DNA of 64,000 bases, from NCBI GenBank assembly GCA_028820845.1, contig JAPPII010000119.1, forward strand, positions 1,228-65,227. Reading direction: 5' to 3'. The notes beneath the pieces were generated by a model that saw nothing but the letters and a program-made list of their open reading frames with translations, was not told where the DNA came from and ran no database searches. A program made the translations under genes and the position numbers. Origin of the DNA: Candidatus Poribacteria bacterium. Lineage in GTDB: Bacteria > Poribacteria > WGA-4E > WGA-3G. Below, in pieces: positions 18,353-30,575 of this stretch (positions within the stretch are counted from its first letter, which is position 1; each line of letters opens with the position of its first letter).

Positions 18353-19459
18353 TTAGAGCCTCGGTGGATAGCAACAAATTATTTCCATCGGTGTATCGCC
18401 AGTGCTAACAATGACATAACTCGACAAGCACCGCGGAATAAAGACGGATTTGCCCCGTTTGAGCGGGACATCTTCAAAGTCCCCGCGAAGCACACCTTCA
18501 CCCCCCAAGGTCACAAGTGCATAGAAGCCTTCGCCTGCTGGCATACTCAGCGTCGAATTCACCGTCAGACGTGAGCACCCGAAGAATTGCAGTGCCTCCT
18601 CTGGCACAATCCGATCCTCGCGGTTATCACCCTCTGCCCGAACGAGTTCCGGCGTACGTCGGATGTAGTTGTTCAGATAGTCGAGCTCCAATTTATCAAA
18701 CTCAGCGGCATCGACTGCCAGATCCCATCCGAGACCGAGGTGTCCATCGTCTCTTTCAAACGGGAAACCTTCCCATTCAGCGAGGATGTTCCAGTCGGTA
18801 GGTTCCTGAGGTTCAAGGACGCAGAGTCCTGTACCGAGTGAGTGGACAATCGGTGTGCGTAAAAAATAGACTTCTCCGACTTTCGGTTCAACGACGTGCA
18901 TGAGACTCCGCAGCGTTGGGACATCTTGTGCCTCCATCAGGCGACGGAACTCTGCCTTGTCTATCGCTTCTTTCCAACCGATCCACGCTTTTGCGCCTGG
19001 ACGCGTGCCGATTAAAATCCATGCCTCATTTTTGCCGAAAGGTGAATTCAGATGCTCCTTTGAAAAATCGGGGTTCGGGTGCCAGTGGATCGGGATATGC
19101 GCGCCTTCACCGACATCAAAAATTTTGAGAAGTACACCGAGATCTGTGCCGTATTTGGCGACATGCGAACTGCCAAGCGCCTCCTCTGGAAACGCGTCCA
19201 ACAATGCTTTCAATAACACGACTTCACCACTGGGAAGTTCGATACGGCTGAAGCCCTTGTCGGGCGGGTTTTCCCTACCCGGGGTCTCTGCCCGGTTCGT
19301 GGAGAAGATCCATTCCTCGGAGTAGTAGTCATCTTTGGGGTCGGGTTCGCCCATAAACTCGGCGCGGAGTTTCCCACCGTTATAGAAATGGAGGTAGGTA
19401 TTGGGTGCTAAAGCGATGGGAGCGTTTAGCATTGACTGTAGTTCGTTTTGTGATGCCAT
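18353..19459 (-). CDS. Class I mannose-6-phosphate isomerase-like cupin
   Basis: LLKIFDVGEGAHIPIHWHP and KNEAWIL resemble PMI type I zinc-site motifs. ATG 19459 (MASQNEL) follows SD-like AAAGGAAAC. Confidence 0.7.
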   Translation of the reverse strand: MASQNELQSMLNAPIALAPNTYLHFYNGGKLRAEFMGEPDPKDDYYSEEWIFSTNRAETPGRENPPDKGFSRIELPSGEVVLLKALLDAFPEEALGSSHVAKYGTDLGVLLKIFDVGEGAHIPIHWHPNPDFSKEHLNSPFGKNEAWILIGTRPGAKAWIGWKEAIDKAEFRRLMEAQDVPTLRSLMHVVEPKVGEVYFLRTPIVHSLGTGLCVLEPQEPTDWNILAEWEGFPFERDDGHLGLGWDLAVDAAEFDKLELDYLNNYIRRTPELVRAEGDNREDRIVPEEALQFFGCSRLTVNSTLSMPAGEGFYALVTLGGEGVLRGDFEDVPLKRGKSVFIPRCLSSYVIVSTGDTPMEIICCYPPRL

Positions 19460-19521
19460 GTTGTTTCCTTTCTCTATCTTTAAAAAACTCAAGGCGTAAA
19501 GGTTTCCCTTGTTTGAAAGTC

Positions 19522-19587: not shown

Positions 19588-19632
19588 GGTCTGGAAACTG
19601 TGCGATGGGAACTGCCCGGAGGTTAGACGGGC

Positions 19633-19785
19633 CGTGGGTTGAGAGGACTTTTGCGGCTCTGGTGTTTTTTCGCTGTTACTATGAATCGTGATTTTGAGGC
19701 GATTAAAAAACCTCGTGAAAACCCAGTTGTGGCGTGGGTTGAGAGGGCTTTTGCGTTTGTCTGCTTTGGGGTGGGTTACTATGAA
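19633..19785. repeat. Two 53-bp related units exactly 100 bp apart (iteron-like)
   Basis: CGTGGGTTGAGAGGRCTTTTGCG - 18 variable nt - GTTACTATGAA at 19633-19685 and 19733-19785. Confidence 0.8.
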
Positions 19786-19812
19786 AATAACATACCAATG
19801 AAAATAACATAC
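19781..19812. repeat. Direct 15-mer ATGAAAATAACATAC x2
   Basis: Copies at 19781-19795 and 19798-19812, separated by CA. Confidence 0.85.
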
Positions 19813-19907
19813 TTATAAATTATTTTATACAAAGTGTGAATAATTAAGGAACATCCAACCCGAATTTTTAGATGTTTGATGCGATTAGATGTATCAACAT
19901 CCGTTAG

Positions 19908-20279
19908 TTACAAAATCCACGACTGCATACGATCTGCAATTACTTCAATATCGGTTATAGTTCCATCGGCAATCTTGAAGCCGAGATCAATAATGGAGTC
20001 ATCAATGTCTGCCCGACGGAAATAACCGTTCAATTCTAAAAACTGGAACGCACACGTTAGACCGATACGTTTGTTCCCATCGAAAAATATATGTCCTGTA
20101 ATGATATGGTGGGCATACACGGCAGCTTTTTGAAATACAGTTGGAAACAGGTCGATGTTACCAAATTTCTCACCCACTATGTCCACCAAATAATGTAACT
20201 GATTTTCATTTAGCAGCTGATAGTCACCCACATGCCCCACGGCAATGATTAGAATATCTTCAATTGTCAAATATTTCAT
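19908..20279 (-). CDS. doc: Doc (death-on-curing) family Fic-fold toxin
   Basis: HIITGHIFFDGNKRIG matches the Doc motif HxFx(D/N)GNKR. ATG 20279 overlaps the upstream TGA (ATGA at 20276-20279). Confidence 0.85.
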   Translation of the reverse strand: MKYLTIEDILIIAVGHVGDYQLLNENQLHYLVDIVGEKFGNIDLFPTVFQKAAVYAHHIITGHIFFDGNKRIGLTCAFQFLELNGYFRRADIDDSIIDLGFKIADGTITDIEVIADRMQSWIL

Positions 20280-20671
20280 GCGCTGCCGAGGACTTTCCAC
20301 GCGCGATCGTGGTCTTGTAGTATCTTGTCTAAGGTGGTGAGGGCATCACTCCCCAAATTTCTGGCGGTCCCCAGATCTGCTTTGGCTTTGTCGCGCTCCC
20401 CGAGGCGTAACCACGCACCACCTCGATAGTAGTACGCCTCAGCGAAATCGGGCTTAAGTTCTATCGCCTTGGTATAGTCTGCAATCGCAAGTTCAACTTC
20501 GCCTTTTTTGGCGTAAGCAAGGCCGCGTTGGTAATATGCCTCGGCAAACTTTGGGTTTAGTTCTATCGCTTGGGTGAAATCTTCAATAGCGCAGTCATAA
20601 TCTCCGCTTTCGGTGTAGGCAACGCCGCGCTTGTAATATTTATTAGCAAATTCTTGATTCGGTTTTTGCAT
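20276..20671 (-). CDS. Small TPR protein (2 TPR + capping helix) in the antitoxin position upstream of doc
   Basis: YYKRGVAYTESGDYDCAIEDFTQAIELNPKFAE, AYYQRGLAYAKKGEVELAIADYTKAIELKPDFAE, cap AYYYRGGAWLRLGERDKAKADL. SD GGAGGAG before ATG 20671. Confidence 0.85.
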   Translation of the reverse strand: MQKPNQEFANKYYKRGVAYTESGDYDCAIEDFTQAIELNPKFAEAYYQRGLAYAKKGEVELAIADYTKAIELKPDFAEAYYYRGGAWLRLGERDKAKADLGTARNLGSDALTTLDKILQDHDRAWKVLGSA

Positions 20672-20715
20672 GATTTTTCTCCTCCATAAGTCAATTTTGC
20701 CTATAAGCACACCCG

Positions 20716-21207
20716 CTAATCCATCTCATCTGCTTCTTGTAGCGCGTAATTGATGAGCGATTCACTCAGATGCATCCCGTTAGCCCGCAACCGAATTAAA
20801 AGCGGTTTGATGACCTCAATCAAACCTTCTTCTTTCGCCTCCAGCAAGATGCCTACTGTTCCTTTAGTCATTAATCCGATTTCTTTCGCCTCCCGTCTTC
20901 CGTCACTGTCATCAATAAGAACGAGGCGTGCATCATGTTCGTTGGCAAGAGCTAAGGCATGGGCTTCACCGTCATCAAGTCCCGCATAAACCGCAGCGGC
21001 TTGCGGATCCGTTAAATCAACAGTTTTAATCCAAGGGGCATTTTCGAGGGCTTTCCGGCGGATTATTGGATCCCTTTTGAGAAACTCTTTTTCAACTTTT
21101 CGTGGAATCCATACCTCTGTATAAAGATCTCTCAATAGAGAAAGCAGGTTGATCCCCAAGAGTCCCACAAGCGGACTGTTATTGCTAATAACTGGTTGTA
21201 TCGGCAT
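20716..21207 (-). CDS. DUF3368-type PIN-like nuclease toxin
   Basis: SNNSPLVGLLGINLLSLL, LDDGEAHALALA, LVLIDDSDGRREAKEIGLMTKGTVGILLEAKEEGLI match the DUF3368 pattern as I recall it. The start lies 2 nt after the upstream stop. Confidence 0.8.
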   Translation of the reverse strand: MPIQPVISNNSPLVGLLGINLLSLLRDLYTEVWIPRKVEKEFLKRDPIIRRKALENAPWIKTVDLTDPQAAAVYAGLDDGEAHALALANEHDARLVLIDDSDGRREAKEIGLMTKGTVGILLEAKEEGLIEVIKPLLIRLRANGMHLSESLINYALQEADEMD

Positions 21208-21209
21208 TC

Positions 21210-24089
21210 TTAAAATCCGCTATTGACAAGCTCCTCCTCATCAACATAAAAAGGAGAGAGTCCATAATCCCCCATTAGATACCAGAATTCTTCGCGTGAT
21301 ACCCCTGCAAGCTTCGAGGCAAGCCCACTGCTAAGTTCACCGCTCCCGTAGTACTTCATTCCTAACGCGATCCGCGCTTCCTGATCAATCTCAAATGGTC
21401 CTGTTAGCGGGGTCAGCAGTGTCACAATTTCTTTTGGTAACTGAACCTCTATCTTTTGCTCAAAGGCAGCAATGCTCTCATGGTTGCTCCGAAATGCTGC
21501 GGCGACATCTACGTCTTGTAGGAGTGCAGCTGTCAGGTCCGTCTTCGCTTCTTCCCAACCTTTCGCAAGCAACCAAGCCTCGCCCCGTATATAATAGAAT
21601 TCAGCAATTTTTGGTCTGAGTTTTAGTGCCCCGGTATAATCCTCAATCGCACTGTCTAACTCGGCTTTGGCGCGGTAGGCGTTGCCCCGATGCGTGTATG
21701 CCTCCACAAGTTCTGAATTGATCTCTATGGCTTTGTCATAATCTGTTATCGCCTTGTCCAATTCGTTTTTGTTGTAGTAAGCCTGACCCCGATTGAGGTA
21801 TGCCTCGGCAAATTCTGGATTCAATTCTATTGCTTTGCTATGATCTCCGATCGCCTTGTCTATCTCGCCTTGCTGATTGTAGATGAGACCGCGGCAGGTA
21901 TAAGGCTCAGCAAGTTCTGGGTTAAGTTGTATAGCTTTGTCATAATCTTCAATCGCCTTGTCTATCTCGCCTTTATCACGGTAAGCCTTACCGCGCGCCG
22001 TATAAGCCTCTGCAAACTTTGGCTCCTGTGCGATCGCAGCGTTATAGTCCTCAATTGCCTTGTCTACCTCACCTTTGCAATGGTAGGTTATACCGCGCTC
22101 GGTATAGGCATAGGCAGCTGCTTCCGGTTTAAGACTTATTGCCGTGCTAAAGTCTTGGATGGCTTTCTCAAAAACCAAGAGATTGCGGTAAGCCATCCCG
22201 CGGCCATAGTAGGCAAGTGGATCGTCAGGGGTGAGACTTATGACTTTGCCGAAATCATCGACTGCTCGGTAAAACCTGCCCTTGTTGTAGTAGGCTGTAC
22301 CGCGATTGTAATATGCCTGGACAGCATCTGGGTTCAGTGCTATCGCCCTGCGGAAGCTTGCAATAGCAAGATCATAATTACCCTTTTCCTTATAATCAAT
22401 ACCTTGGGCTATATGGATGTAAACATCAGCGGTCTTTAATGAGTGTGGGGTCAACAGTGCTACGATGTCCACTGGCAATTGAACCTGATTTGTTTCTTCA
22501 AAGTTTGCGACGTTTTCATAGTCGTAACAGAACGCGGTAAGAAGATCAACATCCATATTCTTGGCAGTGATGAGATCCACCCTAGCTTTTTCCCATTCTT
22601 TCAGGAGCAACCACGCCTCACCGCGGTTATAGTACGCAATAGTAAATTCTGGATCAAGTCGTATCACCATACTATAATCCTTGATAACTTGATGTATCAA
22701 GCGTTTGCTGCTTTTCCGACAAGCGAAGCCTCGGTTGTAATAACCCTCAACACGCTGGGGATCTATTTCTATTGCAGTGTTAAAGTCTGCAATGGCTTTG
22801 TGAAGTTCGCCTTTTTGGTCATAAGCGTTTCCACGGTTATTATAGGCATCGTAATAACGTGGATTCAGTTCTATCGCCTTGCTATGATCTGCAATCGCTT
22901 TGTTAAAATTCCTTTTACTGCTATAGGCATTACCACGGTTGAAATATGCTTCGGCAGACTCGGGATTCAGTTCTATTGCCTTGTTGTGATCTGCAATCGC
23001 TTTGTTAAAATCTCCCTTATTATAATAAATTATCCCCCGGCTGTTATAGGTCCCAGCAAAATTGGGTTTACATTTTATAGCGGTACTTAAGTCTTCAATA
23101 GCTCTATTAAAATCTCCTTTGCTAAAATAAATAGCACCACGGTTATTATAGGCCTCGGAATTCTTAGGATTTAGTCCTATCGCAGTGTTGAAATCTTCAG
23201 AGGCTAGGTCAAGATATCCAATGCTTAGGTAGGCAGTGCCGCGGTTGTTATAGGCACTAGCATAATCTCGTTTTAGTTGTATTGCCGTATTATAGTCATT
23301 AATCGCCAAATCAAAAGATTTCATGATTTGATAAGCCAATCCACGATTATCATAGGCTTCAGGGAGAGCTGGTTTTAGTTGTATTGCCGTATTATAGTCA
23401 TTAATCGCCAAATCAAAATTCTTTTTTATTCTATAAGCATTACCGCGATTAACATAGGCTTCGGCAAAATGTGAGTTCAGTTCTATTGCCATGTTATAGT
23501 CATTGATAGCCAAATCAACTTTGCCTAACTCGTAGTAGACAAACCCGCGATTGTAATAGGCCACAACATCATTAGGTTTTAGTTGTATTGCTCTATTACA
23601 ATCTTGAATTCCTTGGGTAAAATTGCCCTTACTAAAGTAAGCGAAACCGCGGTTGAGGTAAGTTTCGGTAAGTTGGGAATCTAATTTTAATGCGTTGTCA
23701 AAATCAGCGATAGCAAGGTCATACTCACCTTTTTTCGCGTAAGTAATACCACGGTTGTTATAAGCAGCAAAAAACTTTGAATCTAGGGCTATTGCTCTAA
23801 CATAGTCCTCAATAGCCTTATCATATTCGCCCTTCCTATCATAAGCAACACCGCGATCGTTATAAGCACCAATATGCTTTGGATTCAGTTCTAATGCCTT
23901 GCTAAAATTTTCGATGGCAAGGTCATACTCGCCTCCCTTATTATGAGTAATGCCGAGAGTATTGTAGGTTTCGGCCTCATGAGGAATAATGTCTATAGTT
24001 TTGTTAGAATTTTCAATATTGCTGTTAGGTGCATTTATGTAACCGTAAACAATGTCGGCTGCGGAAAAATCCAGATTCGGTTGTAACAT
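21210..24089 (-). CDS. Giant TPR protein (13+cap and 8+cap repeats) with C-terminal UPF0175 antitoxin-like domain
   Basis: Regular 34-aa A-Y-x-N-R-G...A-I-x-D-Y/F...A-I-x-L-x-P repeats. C-terminal ARIALGMKYYGSGELSSGLASKLAGVSREEFWYLMGDYGLSPFYVDEEEL fits UPF0175. ATG 24089 follows SD GGGGAGGAAG; the TTG at 24182 would include the promoter. Confidence 0.85.
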   Translation of the reverse strand: MLQPNLDFSAADIVYGYINAPNSNIENSNKTIDIIPHEAETYNTLGITHNKGGEYDLAIENFSKALELNPKHIGAYNDRGVAYDRKGEYDKAIEDYVRAIALDSKFFAAYNNRGITYAKKGEYDLAIADFDNALKLDSQLTETYLNRGFAYFSKGNFTQGIQDCNRAIQLKPNDVVAYYNRGFVYYELGKVDLAINDYNMAIELNSHFAEAYVNRGNAYRIKKNFDLAINDYNTAIQLKPALPEAYDNRGLAYQIMKSFDLAINDYNTAIQLKRDYASAYNNRGTAYLSIGYLDLASEDFNTAIGLNPKNSEAYNNRGAIYFSKGDFNRAIEDLSTAIKCKPNFAGTYNSRGIIYYNKGDFNKAIADHNKAIELNPESAEAYFNRGNAYSSKRNFNKAIADHSKAIELNPRYYDAYNNRGNAYDQKGELHKAIADFNTAIEIDPQRVEGYYNRGFACRKSSKRLIHQVIKDYSMVIRLDPEFTIAYYNRGEAWLLLKEWEKARVDLITAKNMDVDLLTAFCYDYENVANFEETNQVQLPVDIVALLTPHSLKTADVYIHIAQGIDYKEKGNYDLAIASFRRAIALNPDAVQAYYNRGTAYYNKGRFYRAVDDFGKVISLTPDDPLAYYGRGMAYRNLLVFEKAIQDFSTAISLKPEAAAYAYTERGITYHCKGEVDKAIEDYNAAIAQEPKFAEAYTARGKAYRDKGEIDKAIEDYDKAIQLNPELAEPYTCRGLIYNQQGEIDKAIGDHSKAIELNPEFAEAYLNRGQAYYNKNELDKAITDYDKAIEINSELVEAYTHRGNAYRAKAELDSAIEDYTGALKLRPKIAEFYYIRGEAWLLAKGWEEAKTDLTAALLQDVDVAAAFRSNHESIAAFEQKIEVQLPKEIVTLLTPLTGPFEIDQEARIALGMKYYGSGELSSGLASKLAGVSREEFWYLMGDYGLSPFYVDEEELVNSGF
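23270..23418. repeat. Identical 47-bp segments 102 bp apart inside the TPR gene
   Basis: GTTTTAGTTGTATTGCCGTATTATAGTCATTAATCGCCAAATCAAAA at 23270-23316 and 23372-23418. The offset equals one 34-codon TPR unit (FDLAINDYNTAIQLK twice). Confidence 0.9.
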
Positions 24090-24127
24090 CGTTCTTCCTC
24101 CCCTACAATACGGATAATTTAAGGGTA

Positions 24128-24157
24128 ATGATAACACATTTGAAGACCTGATGTCAA
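24128..24157 (-). promoter_or_regulatory. Putative promoter of the TPR/toxin operon
   Basis: Minus strand reads TTGACA-18 nt-TATCAT, ~40 nt upstream of ATG 24089. Confidence 0.45.
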
Positions 24158-24214
24158 CCGAATTTGGAGATTTGAAACCCAATTAATTGCATGTGTCACA
24201 TACCGCTCCGAAAT

Positions 24215-24247
24215 CAACGGTATGAATGCCTTATGGCATTCCCCGGG
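24215..24247. repeat. Conserved-flank hairpin, copy 1
   Basis: CAACGGTATGAATGCC TTAT GGCATTCCCCGGG. The partner at 32808-32840 has identical flanks and a different but still complementary stem. Confidence 0.8.
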
Positions 24248-24302
24248 AGCGGAAGATTGGAAACACCATGCAGACTATAGACATAACGCTCCGCTGGAGC
24301 GT

Positions 24303-24348
24303 AATCCGCGAAATCTGCGCAATCCGCGATAATCCGCGATTCAGACAA
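24303..24348. repeat. Nonamer-periodic CGCGGAT repeat
   Basis: Minus strand reads TTGTCTGAATCGCGGATT ATCGCGGAT TGCGCAGAT TTCGCGGATT. Homologous to 57107-57152. Confidence 0.8.
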
Positions 24349-24349
24349 A

Positions 24350-27300
24350 CTATCCTTTCCCCTTCAAACTCCGCGCCTTCCGCAACCGAGATTCTACCAA
24401 ATTAACAACCGCTTCATACACCCCATCCCGTTCACCTTGTGTGAGACCGAGCGCATCGAAAATGATTGTGTCAAGGACGCGACGGTCATCCGAAGGATCA
24501 AGCATTTCCCATGAAGAAGATGTGAATATCGCTGCATCTTCAAATGCAAATATCTTTGGATCTAAACAGAGTAACTCCGACACTTCATAGGTCTGAATCT
24601 TCAGTAAACCGCCACCGAAATTAGAACGTCCTGCCATATTTACCATCAGTTGAAACAGGGACGAATTCAAAGAGGCACACAAGGGCAATATCAAATCCGA
24701 ATCCGTATGTACTTCCTGAAAATTGTCGCTTGTATAGCAACCGTTTCGTGCATATAGCGTTCTTGCGGTTGAAGAAATTAGATAGTTGAAAGCAAGCGAT
24801 GGGATTTCTCGTTTACCTAAATCCCACCACCTTACCCTTGACCTACAACTCGGTTTCTGATGAAATCCCTGTGATTCACCCCATTCAATATAGTCCAACG
24901 CAGCAGTGCCTGCCAATACCGCTCTGTCCGTATGACACATAAATAACTTGAACTGCAACTGACTGGGATCTACGCGGATGCTTTTGCATTCCCGCGGACT
25001 TTTGATGACGGGCTTCAAGAATTCATCTTCGATTCCCCATTCTCGAATCCGTTCAGCGTCAAGATAGAAGAAGTCATTGGCACCTGTTGTGAAGCCACGC
25101 CTTACCTCCGCAATGTCTCCCAGACGCACCAGTTTATCCTTGCCTTTCTCCAGCAGCGTCCAGTAGATGTCTGGGGCGCGTAGATATTTCCCACCCCACT
25201 TGTCACCGGTGTATTTATTCTCACGCGTGCCTGCTTGTGCTAATTCGGTATAGGGGCGCGTTCGCTCTCGTCGGTTCTCTATATCTGGGTCACCTATGAA
25301 CGTCTTGAAGGTCAGAAAACGGATCTGAGAATCAGGATTGGGGATGCCGTTGTGGAGAACACTCACAATCGTGTTGATGTCGGCACTCTCAAACTCACGT
25401 TCTGCTTCGCTGTGACAGATAACGGCACTCTTCGTATTGTCTAAGAGATACTTCTGTAACGGGGCACCGTAGTTGACATCCAACCAGCTGTTGGAACAGA
25501 TAAAGGTATGGATACCCTTTGGACTCAGCAGTTGCAGTCCGCGTTCATAGAAATAGACGTAAAGGTCGGCTGCGCCGGTGTAGCAGGTATAGCGTTTTTT
25601 CAACGTCGGTTTGAGGGACTTAATCTTCTCTTGACGGACGTAAGGCGGATTGCCAATCACGACATCGAACCCGTCTGTAATGCCGAACATCCACTCAGGG
25701 TCAAAGAAGTTGGCGGAGGCGTTTTGGTTGTATGGATCCCACGCCGAAATCTTTTCAGTCGTCTCGCTTGGAAACCCGTCCTGTTGCAGCAATGTGCTAA
25801 TCTCAGCGCGGAGCTCAGCGTCTTGTTTTCTGTACCGGTCTTTCGTGCGCGGGGTGCGGGCGGTGAAGTGTCTACGCCTCACCTCTTCGAGTGCTTTCTC
25901 CTTGCTGTCTATCTCTGGGTTGCGGAGTGTCATCTGCTCGGGTTTCTCCACGTCAAGAAGCGTATTCGCCGCAACGAACTTCGTCTCTAAGTTTGGCAAC
26001 GGACGCACGCCTCGGTTCTCGCGGGTATCGTCAATTTTCTGTTCTACGATAAGGGAGATGAAAAAGCGGAGTTTGGCAATTTGTGTGGCAATGGGTTGGA
26101 TGTCCACGCCGTAGATGCAGTTCTCTATGAGATAGAGTTTTCTGCCGTAGTCGAGTTCGTTGCGTTCAAATGCTTCATTGATGCTGTCGATTTCTCTTTC
26201 CAATTCGCTGATGGCACTCTCACGGAAGGTGCTATCGTCGATTTTCTCTGACGCGGTGATGGCACCTTGGACGCGGTCAATTTGGCGTTGTCGCCATTGT
26301 GCGTTGCGGGGATCAAGTTTGCTGAGTAGGAAGACGAGTTTGTGTAAGATGCCCATCGGGAAGGCACCGGAGCCGCACGCTGGGTCGAGAATCTTGAGGG
26401 TGTCGATGGCACTGATGAGGTGTTCGACTTCGGTAGTGGTGAATTGATGAGGTTCGTCGTTGTATGCGAGGAGGTGACGGAGTTTGGTTTCTGACGGGCA
26501 ATGAATGGTTTCCCTACTACGAACCGTGTTTTTGAAGTAGGCGATGAGGGACTCGTCTACCATGTAGTTGACGACTTCACGGGGAGTGTAGAAAGAGCCG
26601 GTCTGTTTACGCGCAGTTGTGCCGGTTTCTGGGTTGTATGCGGCGAGGAGGTTTTCAAATACCTGCCCGAGGAGTTCGGGGTCAAGAGCGACTTCTTGCT
26701 CTATGGGTGTGTTTTCGGCAATCGTGAACTTGTAGCGGTTGAGGATGTGGATTAAACCTCGCACGGTGTATCGGCTGTTTTTCGTATCATAGACGGCGTT
26801 GAGATTTACTGACTGCGGTTCGGAGAAGAAGAGTTCGTTTGGCACCGAAAGCGGGTTGTCCTCTCTGTCGGAGAAGCCGTCGATTCGTAGAATTGTTTTT
26901 GCGTCGTCTGGATCGGGTTTATCCAAACATTCAAATAAGCCGCCGTTGAGGAACGGGATTGTCTCAAACAGATGCAGCGCTGCGTCCGGGTCTCTGAAAT
27001 AGCGTTTGTAGCGGTAAAGTGAGGTGATGTTGTAGTGCTGTCGTCCCTCGCCTCGGAACTTGCGAGTGTTCGGTTTTTCAGACGTGTTCATCTCCTGATT
27101 TAACGTCGCGAAGAATAGGTTTTGGAGGATTGCCTTGTAGTAGGTGCTTTCCTGTGGATCAACGTTTGCGAGCAGTTCCGAGATGGTGTCCTCCTCAAAG
27201 AGCGCGTTCGGGACGAGTTCCTTCCCCTTGAGAAACCAGACGAAGATCAGCCGTGTAATCAGGCGGATGACACACGTGGCATTGTGGACGGTGAGGTGAG

Positions 27301-28072
27301 AAACCACGCCTACCGATGTGTCGGCATCGGCTGGAAACGTCACCTTATCCACCGCCCAGAAATACCAATCGGCAATCTCTTTGAAGAAACGTCTGTTGAG
27401 CTCGGAGGTGTCCAAGGTCTGCTGCCACGCCTGATGGAGTTCAAGGAAGTTCGTAAACCCGTGCTGCTGATAGAGGGCACTTAGTGACAACTCCGCTAAG
27501 ATGTCAAGGTGTGCGCGGTGGGGATTCACAAGGTCAATATCCTTGATGAGTGTCACTTTTTCAAGCACATCAAGGTCCCTATCACGCTGACTCGGTCTGC
27601 GGTTGATAATGGAAAAGGTTAGGGTGCGTCCGTGTTGAAAAATCAGGAGTGCTGGTATGGCGTAGAGCTTGTTGATTTCGCGGGTGATGTTGGCGAGTGC
27701 GGTGCGAGAGTAGGTATCTCCTTTAAGTTTGATAGCGAGAAAGAGATAGGACTGATAGATACTCTCATCAACGCCTGCGTCCTCATGGAAGGTGATCGTC
27801 TCTTGGGTCTGCTGTCTGATTTCGTCAGCGGTGAGTTGGAAGAGGAAATCGGCGGTCTGCCAGTCGTTTAGGTGCGCTTTCTCAGGGTTTATGAGGTTGT
27901 CAGGATCGAAGTCTTCGCGAAATGCCTCGGTTGTGTTTGCGTCTCGGTTGAGGGTCCGTTGGCTCTCGTAGCCTAATACCTTGAGGAGATGAGTTGCGTT
28001 TTTGGCGAGTTCACCGTCCATGAAGTTGTTGAGGGCACTTTGAATTTCGGTTCTGATATGTGTTTCAGGCAT
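24350..28072 (-). CDS. Type IIG/IIL-like restriction-modification enzyme (Eco57I-family N6-adenine DNA methyltransferase with N-terminal putative nuclease region and C-terminal TRD)
   Basis: Motif I ILDPACGSGAF, motif IV GNPPYVRQE, TRD-type RRGFTTGANDFFYLD. Size 1240 aa. ATG 28072 (MPETH) with SD-like AAAGGAAAAG. Confidence 0.8.
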   Translation of the reverse strand: MPETHIRTEIQSALNNFMDGELAKNATHLLKVLGYESQRTLNRDANTTEAFREDFDPDNLINPEKAHLNDWQTADFLFQLTADEIRQQTQETITFHEDAGVDESIYQSYLFLAIKLKGDTYSRTALANITREINKLYAIPALLIFQHGRTLTFSIINRRPSQRDRDLDVLEKVTLIKDIDLVNPHRAHLDILAELSLSALYQQHGFTNFLELHQAWQQTLDTSELNRRFFKEIADWYFWAVDKVTFPADADTSVGVVSHLTVHNATCVIRLITRLIFVWFLKGKELVPNALFEEDTISELLANVDPQESTYYKAILQNLFFATLNQEMNTSEKPNTRKFRGEGRQHYNITSLYRYKRYFRDPDAALHLFETIPFLNGGLFECLDKPDPDDAKTILRIDGFSDREDNPLSVPNELFFSEPQSVNLNAVYDTKNSRYTVRGLIHILNRYKFTIAENTPIEQEVALDPELLGQVFENLLAAYNPETGTTARKQTGSFYTPREVVNYMVDESLIAYFKNTVRSRETIHCPSETKLRHLLAYNDEPHQFTTTEVEHLISAIDTLKILDPACGSGAFPMGILHKLVFLLSKLDPRNAQWRQRQIDRVQGAITASEKIDDSTFRESAISELEREIDSINEAFERNELDYGRKLYLIENCIYGVDIQPIATQIAKLRFFISLIVEQKIDDTRENRGVRPLPNLETKFVAANTLLDVEKPEQMTLRNPEIDSKEKALEEVRRRHFTARTPRTKDRYRKQDAELRAEISTLLQQDGFPSETTEKISAWDPYNQNASANFFDPEWMFGITDGFDVVIGNPPYVRQEKIKSLKPTLKKRYTCYTGAADLYVYFYERGLQLLSPKGIHTFICSNSWLDVNYGAPLQKYLLDNTKSAVICHSEAEREFESADINTIVSVLHNGIPNPDSQIRFLTFKTFIGDPDIENRRERTRPYTELAQAGTRENKYTGDKWGGKYLRAPDIYWTLLEKGKDKLVRLGDIAEVRRGFTTGANDFFYLDAERIREWGIEDEFLKPVIKSPRECKSIRVDPSQLQFKLFMCHTDRAVLAGTAALDYIEWGESQGFHQKPSCRSRVRWWDLGKREIPSLAFNYLISSTARTLYARNGCYTSDNFQEVHTDSDLILPLCASLNSSLFQLMVNMAGRSNFGGGLLKIQTYEVSELLCLDPKIFAFEDAAIFTSSSWEMLDPSDDRRVLDTIIFDALGLTQGERDGVYEAVVNLVESRLRKARSLKGKG

Positions 28073-28103
28073 CGTTTCTTTTCCTTTAGGGTTATATCTG
28101 TTG

Positions 28104-28132
28104 AGTTTACACGATTTTTTAAGGAAAAGCAA
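28104..28132 (-). promoter_or_regulatory. Putative promoter of the R-M gene
   Basis: Minus strand reads TTGCTT-17 nt-TAAACT. Confidence 0.45.
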
Positions 28133-28567: not shown

Positions 28568-29359
28568 ATGGCGAAATCTCAAAATAAGACACTGATAGTA
28601 CGAAACTTGACAATATGTTCTTTGCTCCTCACGGCTCTCCTCCTTTGCCCGTTCGCATTAGCCCAAGAAACAATATCTGACATCGAATCCGTCATCAAAC
28701 ATATCGATCAACTCTATCGGAGTGAAACCAGTCACGCCGAGATGGAGATGCACATCGTCACGCCGCATTGGGAACGTACGCTGGCGATGACAATATGGAC
28801 ACAGGGGATGAGCAAGACCTTTATCCGCATTACCGCCCCAAAGAAAGAACAAGGGGTCGCGACACTCCGCATTGGGAATGAGATGTGGAACTACCTTCCG
28901 AAGACGAACAAGGTGATGAAGATTCCACCGTCTATGATGATGGGGTCGTGGATGGGTTCTGATTTCACGAATGACGACTTGGTTCGGGAGTCGTCCATGC
29001 TCAATGATTATACCTACCAGTTTGTTACACCTGAAGATGCATTGCCAGATCATCTCTATGTCCAACTTGTCCCGAAAGAGGATTCTCCGATCGTTTGGGG
29101 AAAGATTGTTGCATCTGTGCGATCCGACGATTATATACCGGTGTGGCAGCACTTTTATGACGAAAAAGGGAATTTGATGCGGGTTATGAACTTCAAAGAG
29201 ATTAAGACGTTTGGTGATAAAATCGCACCGTCTGTGATGGAGATGATTCCTCAAAACAAAGAGGGACATAAAACGGTTGTCCGGTGGTTGAATGCCACAT
29301 TTGATTCAGACATTGACGATAAAATCTTCACACGCCGAAATCTTCAGAGAAGAAGATAG
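28568..29359 (+). CDS. Outer membrane lipoprotein-sorting protein (LolA-like)
   Basis: Signal peptide. RSETSHAEMEMHIV, FIRITAPKKEQGVATLRIGNEMWNYLPKTNKVMKIPPSMMMGSWMGSDFTNDDL is the hallmark of the LolA_like family associated with ABC permeases. Confidence 0.85.
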   Translation: MAKSQNKTLIVRNLTICSLLLTALLLCPFALAQETISDIESVIKHIDQLYRSETSHAEMEMHIVTPHWERTLAMTIWTQGMSKTFIRITAPKKEQGVATLRIGNEMWNYLPKTNKVMKIPPSMMMGSWMGSDFTNDDLVRESSMLNDYTYQFVTPEDALPDHLYVQLVPKEDSPIVWGKIVASVRSDDYIPVWQHFYDEKGNLMRVMNFKEIKTFGDKIAPSVMEMIPQNKEGHKTVVRWLNATFDSDIDDKIFTRRNLQRRR

Positions 29360-29360
29360 T

Positions 29361-30575
29361 ATGATACTCAAAATTGCGTTTCGTAACATCTTCCGTCAGA
29401 AGCGACGGACAATCCTTACCGCACTCGCAATGGTTGTCGGTTTCACACTCTTGTCGCTAACCATCGGTCTGTCCGACGGTGCGTATGGGGACATCATCTC
29501 CATGTTCACGCGAAATCGCATCGGACACATTCAGGTGCACCGTGATGGATACCTTGATAAGCCATCGCTTTATGAGACGATTGATGGGTATACTGCTGTC
29601 GGAGAGGTGATACAGGATGTTGCAGGCGTTGAAGCGTGGACACCACGGGTATATGCAGCGGGACTCGGCTCGGTTGGTGAAAAGAGTACAGGTGTACAAA
29701 TCATCGGCGTTGATGTGACACGAGAAGTTCAAGCGACGCGATTTGATCAAAAAGTAATTGAAGGCACGGTATTAGCGGAAACCGCTTCGCACGAAGCCGT
29801 TATTGGGAAAAACTTGGCAAAGACGCTTTCTGCAAAGATTGGTAGTGAGATTGTGATCTTCTCGCAGGGTGCAGACGGTTCGCTTGCGAACGATGTGTAT
29901 AAGATTGTCGGTATTGCAGAGAGTGGTGACGACGCAACAGATCGAACAACATGTTATCTGCACATTGAAGATGCTCAGGAATTGTTTGTGCTTGAGGGGC
30001 GCGCCCATGAAATCGTTGTGATTGTCTCAAATATCAATCAGGTCGGTAAAATTAAGACTGCAATCGAAGCGAACCTTAACGATTCAACGCTTGATGTTGC
30101 CCCGTGGCAAGTAGTTGCTAAATCCTTTTATCGCGCCATGAAATCCGATCAACAAGGGGATGCCATTTCACGTTGGGTGATTATGCTGATTGTGGCTATC
30201 GGTGTCCTGAATACAGTGCTGATGTCAGTACTGGAGCGGACGCGCGAGTATGGGGTGCTAAAGGCGGTTGGGACAAAACCGATGCAAATTTTCTGGCTCG
30301 TCATCTGCGAAGTCGTCATCATAACACTCGGTAGCATCTGCGTTGGTGCGCTCCTTGGGGTCCTTGTTAATTATCTGCTGTCTATATACGGCATCACATA
30401 TCCCGAAGAAATCACCTTTGGGGGCATGAAAATCAAGACGTTGTATGCTGTAGTGAACGTCCGATGCCTGATTATTCCGGCGATCACGGTTATGGCATCA
30501 GCAACGGTGGTCGGTCTGTTCCCTGCGATAAAAGCAGCCCGGATTCTGCCAGCAAGAGCGATGCGGACACATTAG
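29361..30575 (+). CDS. ABC transporter permease, FtsX/MacB-LolCE type
   Basis: N-terminal KIAFRNIFRQKRRT, large periplasmic loop, C-terminal FtsX 3-TM domain (RTREYGVLKAVGTKP). The start lies 1 nt after the upstream stop. Confidence 0.85.
   Translation: MILKIAFRNIFRQKRRTILTALAMVVGFTLLSLTIGLSDGAYGDIISMFTRNRIGHIQVHRDGYLDKPSLYETIDGYTAVGEVIQDVAGVEAWTPRVYAAGLGSVGEKSTGVQIIGVDVTREVQATRFDQKVIEGTVLAETASHEAVIGKNLAKTLSAKIGSEIVIFSQGADGSLANDVYKIVGIAESGDDATDRTTCYLHIEDAQELFVLEGRAHEIVVIVSNINQVGKIKTAIEANLNDSTLDVAPWQVVAKSFYRAMKSDQQGDAISRWVIMLIVAIGVLNTVLMSVLERTREYGVLKAVGTKPMQIFWLVICEVVIITLGSICVGALLGVLVNYLLSIYGITYPEEITFGGMKIKTLYAVVNVRCLIIPAITVMASATVVGLFPAIKAARILPARAMRTH

Follow-up and report, generated by a model that had tools for sequence, protein, structure and literature searches.

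We analyzed four minus-strand genes, here labeled g1–g4, in a 64,000-nt stretch of DNA from a poribacterial sponge symbiont (contig JAPPII010000119.1; below, the window, to whose full length all coordinates refer). They form two pairs that resemble toxin-antitoxin (TA) systems of type II. In one pair, g1 encodes a double array of tetratricopeptide repeats (TPRs) that ends in a UPF0175 antitoxin domain and is followed by g2, which encodes a DUF3368 PIN-like protein; in the other, a mini-TPR protein (g3) is translationally coupled to a Doc (death-on-curing) toxin (g4). The components belong to known families, and their architecture is a new type II TA variant within a large, undescribed combinatorial family of TPR proteins. 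On balance, we think it probable that the locus is a site for conflict or defense cassettes, where the antitoxins of two TA-like pairs are built on a lineage-specific TPR scaffold and the toxins would be under TPR-gated control.

The usual type II antitoxin is a small protein that binds DNA. In this locus, a putative Doc-binding tail and a UPF0175 domain are instead attached to TPR arrays, protein-binding modules whose length varies widely; this constitutes a new antitoxin design. Full-text literature searches returned no report that describes antitoxins with TPRs, TPR-Doc pairs, or fusions of TPRs to UPF0175, and in databases the partners carry no more specific label than "tetratricopeptide repeat protein." Dozens of independent genomes show these same architectures, which is more than chance would produce. 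A first-pass annotation of the window, made from its letters alone, had proposed that TPR modules extend the usual antitoxin body in the case of UPF0175 and replace it in the case of the Doc partner; this architecture stands, and profile searches uphold all four underlying assignments, i.e., UPF0175, DUF3368, Doc, and TPR.

Doc and its TPR-bearing partner

The g4 product matches the Doc model TIGR01550 (52.4 bits; cut-off 38.65) and the Fic family PF02661 (40 bits), and its intact HIFFDGNKR motif fits the Doc-type pattern HxFx(D/N)(A/G)NKR, which places it in the Doc family. Its matches among the PDB sequences include the Doc proteins 9vzc and 3k33, with HIFFDGNKR aligned to their motif region. 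The g3 product matches TPR families only (TPR_1, 83 bits, E = 6e-24), and profile searches detected neither a Phd/YefM nor an AbrB/MazE DNA-binding domain in it. The core of its AlphaFold2 (AF2) model has a predicted local distance difference test (pLDDT) score >95, and Foldseek superimposes it on the designed protein CTPR3 at a root-mean-square deviation of 0.7 Å (45% sequence identity). Thus, g3 is a repeat protein, as annotated previously, but its description as two TPRs plus a cap needs amendment: judging by the model, it is structurally a 3-TPR domain, the "cap" being the third unit. The gene lies directly upstream of doc and is translationally coupled to it, the TGA of g3 and the ATG of g4 overlapping in an ATGA at 20276–20279, and hence occupies the position of an antitoxin gene.

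A scan of species-representative genomes with Doc yielded 46 poribacterial loci (61–91% identity) and otherwise only distant matches from other phyla. Metagenome-assembled genomes of Candidatus Poribacteria also have annotated Doc and DUF3368 proteins nearly identical to those of the window, which identifies the source as poribacterial; overall, g4 orthologues from about 46 Poribacteria genomes are 61–96% identical. The upstream open reading frame (ORF) could be evaluated at 45 of the 46 loci (comparison loci carry our own numbers, L001, L002, etc.). At every one of them (45/45) it has a common tail, with the consensus …[LI]D[KE]I[LIV]xxY[DE]RAWKxLG[NK]x (helix …LDKILQDYDRAWKxLGN), and overlaps the Doc start; the overlap measures 4 nt at most loci and 13 nt at five of them. 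The part preceding the tail is variable. It contains TPRs at 42 loci and a non-TPR domain at the other three; the ORFs measure 73 to 1126 aa from stop to stop and hold from one to about 30 TPRs, the smallest TPR forms being one TPR plus cap (97–98 aa) or two TPRs plus cap (131 aa). At other loci of this set the tail follows TIR_2 and about 17 TPRs (L014; TIR_2 96.9 bits), TIR_2 with TPRs, cap, and motif (L022), FRG with TPRs (L032), or a 70-aa non-TPR helical protein (L025, L039, L043). Since the parts before the tail vary while the tail is constant, the tail and not the TPR domain is the constant partner of Doc, and it is a portable module.

The non-TPR helical domain of about 70 aa, MRKADLQQQAVELIKQLS…, was observed at L025 5738–6004, L039 5738–6004, and L043 5783–6004 and 9896–10183. 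At L043, the same N-terminal domain also bears a different tail, …DLEIVKSLERAEADVKAGRLKRWSDVRQDV. This suggests that the domain is a second exchangeable antitoxin chassis.

When 41 mini-TPR proteins are aligned, the tail shows the strongest conservation of any segment: W125 and L128 are invariant, and R123, A124, G129, and N130 are nearly so. The g3 AF2 model renders it as a helix with pLDDT of about 50. High conservation combined with low pLDDT beside a core modeled at >95 is a typical sign of a segment that adopts its fold on a partner. More distant Docs, from other phyla, are paired with MazE- or Phd-type antitoxins, and in the nearest outgroup (Spirochaetaceae, L055), the antitoxin paired with Doc has the C-terminus …NKYKRAWEDLAR, with the similar stretch YKRAWEDLAR; this antitoxin is the top match of the tail hidden Markov model (HMM) among 1528 ORFs (E = 0.006). 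The same model gave no significant match to the outgroup antitoxins of L056, L057, L059, L060, and L065. By inspection, neither the g3 tail DALTTLDKILQDHDRAWKVLGSA nor any of the 33 distinct tails contains [S/T]xxxE[G/N], the inhibitory motif of class I Fic antitoxins (VbhA-type inhibitory helix). Taken as a whole, g3 is very probably the cognate Doc-binding antitoxin, in which the presumed neutralizing helix has been kept and TPRs take the place of the DNA-binding domain.

The TPR-Doc pair is also stable in its location. At least one anchor gene of the window is shared by 25 of the 46 poribacterial Doc loci: in 20, the gene immediately downstream of Doc encodes an MPI-cupin, and in 14, LolA-like or FtsX/MacB genes lie upstream. 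This synteny indicates that the g3–g4 pair is apparently ancestral.

The double TPR array, UPF0175, and the PIN-like protein

In g1, Pfam profile searches identified 20 TPR_1 stretches (E = 7e-183) and a UPF0175 domain (PF03683, 49.5–55 bits; cut-off 27.9; residues 897–954). Each of the two arrays ends in a cap and a 19-aa motif, and UPF0175 forms the C-terminal 6% of the protein, behind both arrays and both junction motifs. The tail of g1 weakly matches the PADLOC partner model of the candidate system PDC-S70 (E = 2e-4). An AF2 model of the last 172 residues (pLDDT 91, predicted TM-score 0.84) presents a single compact TPR-junction-UPF0175 unit, where PKEIVTLL of motif B folds into a short helix sandwiched between cap and UPF0175, the latter being a three-helix, helix-turn-helix-like unit with pLDDT >90. 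Foldseek matched the TPR part of this model alone and found no structural analogue of the composite, and the UPF0175 tail had no meaningful match among the PDB sequences. Profile and PADLOC searches detected no nucleoside triphosphatase (NTPase) domain of the STAND, NACHT, NB-ARC, or AAA type in g1 or g3.

The repeat units of g1 and g3 fit the 34-aa TPR pattern W4/L7/G8/Y11/A20/F24/A27/P32, with the repeat consensus AEAYNNRGxAYxxKGxxDxAIxDYxKAIELNP. Variation between repeats is highest at positions 2, 5, 9, 12, 13, 33, and 34. These lie on the concave, ligand-specifying face of TPRs (PMC1261162), and hence the pattern fits ligand binding.

The g2 product matches DUF3368 (PF11848, 52.3 bits) and the PADLOC candidate PDC-S70 (E = 1.8e-43). 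A protein identical to it is present in metagenome-assembled genomes of Candidatus Poribacteria; a search of the PDB sequences gave no meaningful match. UPF0175 is normally a stand-alone protein of about 80–100 aa, and g1, with its 959 aa, departs from this form. The gene order is the usual one: a UPF0175 protein stands directly ahead of a DUF3368 gene, with a 2-nt spacer. UPF0175 (COG2886) and COG2405/DUF3368 are an established predicted TA pair (PMC2701414; PMC5499597), which PADLOC carries as candidate PDC-S70, and UPF0175 was reported exclusively alongside COG2405 (PMC5499597).

The fusion to TPRs is not peculiar to g1. A search with its non-TPR C-terminus returned 40 proteins, many of them of about 170–183 aa and composed of two TPRs, cap, motif, and UPF0175, and at the loci of these mini-TPR-UPF0175 proteins a DUF3368 gene follows immediately downstream. 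Relatives range from 165 to 1043 aa, and TPR, cap, and motif always precede UPF0175. A TPR-cap-motif-UPF0175 gene was found immediately upstream of the g2 relatives at all 15 of 15 loci; eight of these are metagenomic, identified via the DUF3368 alignment, with an upstream gene of 321–963 aa wherever the ORF is whole (contig ends truncate two). In this DUF3368 subfamily, the partner is as a rule fused to TPRs. Together with the tail-bearing ORF at 45/45 Doc loci (42 with TPRs), this bears out the conserved TPR-toxin linkage expected earlier, and the coupling is well established for both pairs.

A cluster of three tandem mini-TPR-UPF0175 genes (170–172 aa) occupies L005 8001–10723, between an N6_N4 methyltransferase-HNH gene and a type IIG restriction-modification (R-M) gene. 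Behind the first copy and again behind the second stands a DUF3368 gene (163 aa); the third has none.

At the beta1 position, where the first catalytic Asp is expected, Asn is found in g2 and in all poribacterial and metagenomic DUF3368 proteins (ISNNSPL, ICNTSPL; the window, L016, L018, L040, L009, and L067–L074); the expected Asp is present in the two L005 copies (SDNSPL, SDTSPL). The other acidic residues (GEA, IDD) are retained in g2 and its relatives. Variable conservation of the active site has been reported for the COG2405 PIN-like family (PMC5499597).

The window matches a scaffold of metagenomic origin, and several comparisons bear on the integrity of g1. An ENA scaffold (L006) that is 99.1% identical in DNA to the window gives the same gene calls (959, 163, 131, and 123 aa), and its g2 and g4 proteins are identical to those of the window despite this divergence. 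Because the identity is only 99.1%, at least two close strains or assemblies hold the same intact four-gene arrangement. Two Logan assemblies match at 99.9–100% from the 3′ end of g1 through g4; an identity look-up in a protein collection did not return the exact g1 and g3 sequences. A different metagenome (L071) contains a collinear orthologue of 961 aa with equal repeat numbers. Relative to it, the ratio of nonsynonymous to synonymous substitution rates (dN/dS) is about 0.17 in both arrays and about 0.15–0.17 in the cap and motif of array A, so that the whole of g1 is under purifying selection. A complete chromosome (L016) encodes a 1043-aa ORF of g1-like layout. Array B is 83–97% identical to it, and the segment from array B through UPF0175 83–100%, whereas array A, 74% identical to L071 at the protein level, is only about 38% identical to L016 and differs from it in repeat number; in comparison with L016, g1 is thus a mosaic. 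Stand-alone antitoxin genes of the array-B type occur at L001, L009, and L068.

Neighboring repeats of g1 are just 73–79% identical in DNA, and L071 and L016 share its layout, which makes mis-assembly, a possibility raised by the first-pass annotation, very unlikely; from these sequence comparisons, g1 appears to be neither a mis-assembly nor a pseudogene. A one-off deletion fusion was also considered and rejected, as the double array-cap-motif layout is found in L002, L016, and L071.

Decayed modules were observed in relatives, namely, a frameshifted array-B TPR-UPF0175 gene and DUF3368 genes cut to 73–77 aa (L001 7244–8786; L002 8520–8744; L009 6692–7997). They point to turnover of these cassettes.

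The cap, helix, and motif define a large family. Their profile matched 603 representative clusters, 329 of them at E ≤ 1e-10. Domain content was surveyed in 146 newly returned proteins among the best 150 matches, 145 of which matched on local re-scan. In 111 of the 145, the module is the extreme C-terminus; at least 40 aa follow it in 28. The segments that follow the motif include UPF0175 (4 cases), a domain of about 350 aa containing TaqI_C (10 cases; PF12950, 55 bits), a Toprim-like segment with no Pfam match (3 cases), TIR/SEFIR with pentapeptide repeats, and antitoxin-like tails, among them the Doc tail. N-terminal domains on the same scaffold include TIR (17), FRG (30), and Trypsin_2. Residues 1–892 of g1 align with residues 1–895 of a 1246-aa protein from L002, whose N-terminal half is the closest relative of array A (57%); this protein has the same double array-cap-motif layout and a TaqI_C-like C-terminus, and its gene is followed by one for an AAA_15/SMC-type ATPase. 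Given this exchange of modules after the motif, the duplicated motif is a recurrent, portable junction and not a peculiarity of g1.

Two other accounts of the junction fell short. NCBIfam NF047558 ("TPR end-of-group") scores above its cut-off with both g1 (158.5 bits) and g3 (58.5 bits), but what it recognizes are ordinary TPR units (model positions 1–35) and not the junction module, and isolated cap-plus-motif segments fail to match. The other account, that the 19-aa motif is simply the N-terminal strand of UPF0175, was suggested by the canonical, IPDEIL-like N-termini of that family. It is not supported as a full explanation, for the motif is C-terminal, without UPF0175, in 111/145 proteins and is followed by other modules elsewhere.

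Double-array proteins of 1246–1389 aa at L002 1931–7143 and L001 1433–7017 end in the TaqI_C-containing domain of about 350 aa, which resembles the specificity domain of type IIG R-M enzymes, and are followed by an AAA_15/SMC_N ATPase gene. These loci may represent a further system built on the g1-type scaffold.

Proposed mechanism and competing explanations

The poribacterial pair shares with the Phd-Doc and MazE/AbrB-Doc systems a Fic-fold Doc with HxFxDGNKR and an upstream, translationally coupled partner. The C-terminal segment of Phd or MazE-type antitoxins binds and neutralizes the toxin, and the poribacterial partner likewise ends in a conserved C-terminal helical segment, the Doc-neutralizing element in Phd. 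Unlike these antitoxins, it has no Phd/YefM or AbrB/MazE domain but a 3-TPR domain (in relatives, as many as about 30 TPRs, in some cases together with TIR or FRG), and would therefore not be expected to regulate its own expression through DNA binding; moreover, the pair is syntenic across the lineage and not patchily mobile. In the mechanism that we propose, the C-terminal amphipathic helix of about 22 aa (…LDKILQDHDRAWKVLG) on the 3-TPR domain of g3 most likely binds and neutralizes Doc, and the TPR domain would occupy the place of the DNA-binding domain in Phd/MazE-type antitoxins. In g1, a complete UPF0175 antitoxin domain, joined via the cap-helix-motif junction to the 21-repeat double TPR array, would act on its usual partner, the DUF3368 PIN-like protein. 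Both pairings are strongly indicated, and family knowledge suggests that the tail and the UPF0175 domain neutralize their respective toxins. The TPR arrays could bind a protein ligand of phage or stress origin or serve as an assembly scaffold, and would thereby determine at what point the antitoxin segment joined to them retains its toxin or lets it go. Release would result in growth arrest or abortive infection.

Gating of toxin release by TPR arrays, as ligand sensors or assembly scaffolds, is plausible in view of the TIR and FRG relatives, the R-M neighborhood, the hypervariability of the arrays, and the antiphage precedent of TIR combined with TPR. The TIR or FRG relatives on the same scaffold likewise make a defense or conflict role plausible. 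The poribacterial genes resemble Avs/STAND proteins and BcTir/Tpr in joining TPR arrays to effector domains (in relatives, TIR and FRG), in their R-M-rich neighborhoods, and in concave-face variation; the BcTir/Tpr TIR plus TPR operon protects against phage (bioRxiv 10.1101/2023.05.26.542521). In contrast to Avs/STAND proteins, g1 and g3 lack an NTPase domain, the TIR- and FRG-TPR relatives join the effector directly to the TPRs, and the effectors of g1 and g3 would be separate TA-type toxins engaged via antitoxin segments and not fused domains activated by oligomerization. If the arrays do sense ligands, they would provide a simple, NTPase-free coupling of foreign-protein recognition to toxin release and a natural toolbox of modular sensor-toxin switches. 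The location of the Doc pair at one chromosomal site across an uncultured lineage makes the hypothesis testable with a few short genes.

The same loci might instead hold classical addiction or stabilization TA pairs without any sensing. The TPRs would then be a structural or oligomerization substitute for a lost DNA-binding or dimerization domain, stabilizing the antitoxin and perhaps setting its proteolytic turnover, in selfish or island-stabilizing modules beside the R-M gene. Antitoxin N-terminal domains are indeed freely exchangeable among TA families (PMC2701414), the minimal forms of one or two TPRs plus cap are too small for an elaborate sensor, the g3 core is a near-consensus TPR (45% identical to CTPR3), and the Doc pair is stably inherited at one site. 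However, expansion to 20–30 repeats and the gain of TIR or FRG in orthologous positions would be needless for a simple stabilizer, long arrays are maintained under purifying selection, and their variation is focused on the concave ligand face; we regard this explanation as unlikely, though as one to be taken seriously. We give distinctly less credence to the idea that the TPR proteins are targeting or scaffolding subunits and not antitoxins, with the tail tethering Doc, a Fic-fold kinase, the TPRs presenting substrates to Doc, the whole being a regulated enzyme for post-translational modification, and the PIN-like protein acting as a non-catalytic or RNA-binding partner. Metazoan FICD engages its substrate BiP via a TPR domain (PMC8373988), and both the vertical conservation of the Doc pair at a housekeeping-flanked site in many species and the Asn at the beta1 acidic position of the DUF3368 proteins would suit such a role. 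In FICD/HYPE, too, a TPR module and a Fic-fold enzyme are functionally linked, but FICD is one polypeptide that combines an AMPylating Fic motif with an inhibitory helix acting intramolecularly, whereas the poribacterial TPR and Doc proteins are encoded by separate overlapping genes, Doc has the kinase-type HxFxDGNKR motif and not the AMPylating one, and the tail is devoid of [S/T]xxxE[G/N]. A partner upstream of Doc with a 4-nt overlap is, furthermore, the canonical TA layout; the non-TPR 70-aa protein that bears the tail at three loci means that TPRs are dispensable for the partnership with Doc; and R-M, TIR, FRG, and PDC-S70 components are found nearby.

A more trivial account—that g1 is a mis-assembled or decaying fusion of TPR genes with a small UPF0175 gene, and that the TPR genes encode "eukaryote-like" host-interaction proteins that merely adjoin TA genes—is highly improbable. 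TPR arrays do break short-read assemblies (two Logan contigs, L007 and L008, stop within array B), L001, L002, and L009 have versions with frameshifts or truncations, and the sponge-symbiont literature treats TPR proteins as host-interaction factors. The comparative data nevertheless largely exclude this account: the 959-aa ORF is intact in the independent, 99%-identical scaffold L006, the 961-aa collinear orthologue in L071 (dN/dS about 0.17) and the 1043-aa equivalent on the complete chromosome of L016 share its structure, adjacent repeats that are 73–79% identical in DNA make collapse or chimerism unlikely, and the start/stop overlap with toxin genes is conserved across dozens of genomes. 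Nor were signal peptide-like N-termini seen in the sequence.

Several observations nonetheless weigh against TPR-gated control of toxins in a defense cassette. The g3 model places the tail at the usual C-terminal solvating-helix site of a 3-TPR domain, and the tail could therefore be partly structural; it has no match among the PDB sequences, and its likeness to canonical antitoxin C-termini is significant for one outgroup, so we do not claim general homology. A syntenic, apparently vertically inherited Doc pair suits a domesticated housekeeping regulator as well as a defense gene, and scans of viral contigs with Doc and DUF3368 revealed no relatives. Variation of the concave face is a generic property of TPRs and not specific evidence of sensing. 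Finally, with Asn in place of the first catalytic Asp, the toxicity and nuclease activity of g2 are uncertain, and the protein may be an attenuated or inactive nuclease.

A wider generalization seems to us possible but doubtful: Poribacteria, and probably other sponge symbionts, would possess a combinatorial, NTPase-less immune scaffold in which diversifying, exchangeable TPR sensors restrain Doc, PIN-like, TIR, FRG, trypsin-like, and nuclease-like toxins, by way of a common cap-helix-motif junction and short antitoxin modules, until a protein of an invader or of stress origin binds the concave TPR face and frees or activates them. If this were true, a class of "TPR-gated toxins" would bridge type II TA systems and NLR-like sensors, and part of the TPR "eukaryote-like protein" expansion of sponge symbionts would serve conflict or defense and not host interaction. 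The sponge-symbiont literature treats these proteins and the enrichment in TA and R-M genes as separate adaptations; the present data physically couple a conserved subset of the TPR genes to toxins.

Feature positions and genomic setting

Recomputation returned the gene positions, junctions, ATGA overlap, repeat layout, and motif coordinates as annotated before (Table 1). A gap of 2 nt separates the stop of g1 from the ATG of g2, and one of 44 nt separates g2 from g3. It is plausible that g1–g4 form one operon. The promoter proposed earlier is the best sigma-70-like match within 19600–24400 (11/12, with TG), and the ORF listing confirmed that the locus contains no further antitoxin-like ORF.

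Table 1. Features of the four-gene cluster and its neighbors, in window coordinates.
Feature	Position	Strand	Details
g1	21210–24089	minus	959 aa; candidate TPR-scaffold antitoxin; ORF and Pfam
TPR array A	22542–23975	minus	13 units + cap; g1 residues 39–516; 34-aa register
Motif copy A, FEETNQVQLPVDIVALLTP	22446–22502	minus	g1 residues 530–548; cap-helix-motif profile A1, domain E = 8e-26
TPR array B	21504–22427	minus	8 units + cap; g1 residues 555–862
Motif copy B, FEQKIEVQLPKEIVTLLTP	21408–21464	minus	g1 residues 876–894; cap-helix-motif profile E = 2e-29
UPF0175 (COG2886) antitoxin domain	21228–21401	minus	g1 residues 897–954; PF03683
g2	20716–21207	minus	163 aa; DUF3368/COG2405 PIN-like toxin candidate
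SNN of g2	21178–21186	minus	g2 residues 8–10; Asn at expected first catalytic Asp
g3	20276–20671	minus	131 aa; mini-TPR protein, candidate Doc antitoxin
Doc-partner tail helix, DALTTLDKILQDHDRAWKVLGSA	20279–20347	minus	g3 residues 109–131; tail HMM E = 1e-13
g4	19908–20279	minus	123 aa; Doc (death-on-curing, Fic-fold) toxin
Doc catalytic motif HIFFDGNKR, intact	20067–20093	minus	g4 residues 63–71
Sigma-70-like promoter candidate, upstream of g1	24128–24157	minus	TTGACA-18-TATCAT, extended -10 TG; consensus match only
Shine-Dalgarno-like GGGGAGGAAG	24094–24103	minus	4 nt ahead of g1 ATG; read from sequence
Type IIG R-M gene (Eco57I/MmeI-like)	24350–28132	minus	1260 aa; directly upstream; PADLOC REase_MTase_IIG E = 1e-75
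MPI-cupin gene	18353–19492	minus	directly downstream of Doc; Pfam MPI_cupin_dom

The type IIG R-M gene noted beside the cluster was confirmed by PADLOC. Such a gene lies within 6 kb of Doc, on the upstream side, in 8 of the 46 Doc loci as well as in the window; it adjoins Doc modules in L014, L022, L025, L027, L032, L039, L046, and L047 and TPR-UPF0175 modules in L001, L005, and L009. The R-M gene, g1–g2, and the TIR/FRG-TPR genes are variable inserts at the site. Hence, the horizontally acquired islet of the first-pass annotation is retained for g1–g2 and the R-M gene but not for g3–g4, which are syntenic and apparently ancestral. Similarly, its remark on AT-richness applies to array A (GC content 0.38 at 23001–24000), whereas the remainder has 0.45–0.47 versus about 0.49 for the window.

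In many Poribacteria (L010–L036), the TPR-Doc site lies between LolA-like/FtsX-MacB genes and MPI-cupin/acyltransferase genes, which correspond to 28568–30575 and 18353–19492 of the window; it looks like a cassette hotspot.

Two plus-strand ORFs of 199 and 215 aa are antisense to g1 (21840–23090). Most likely, they are not genes but arise from the repetitive codon composition of the TPR array.

At L027 4809–5450, two small ORFs (93 and 97 aa) are situated between an FRG-TPR gene and the TPR-Doc pair. By eye, the second of them resembles a HicB-type antitoxin.

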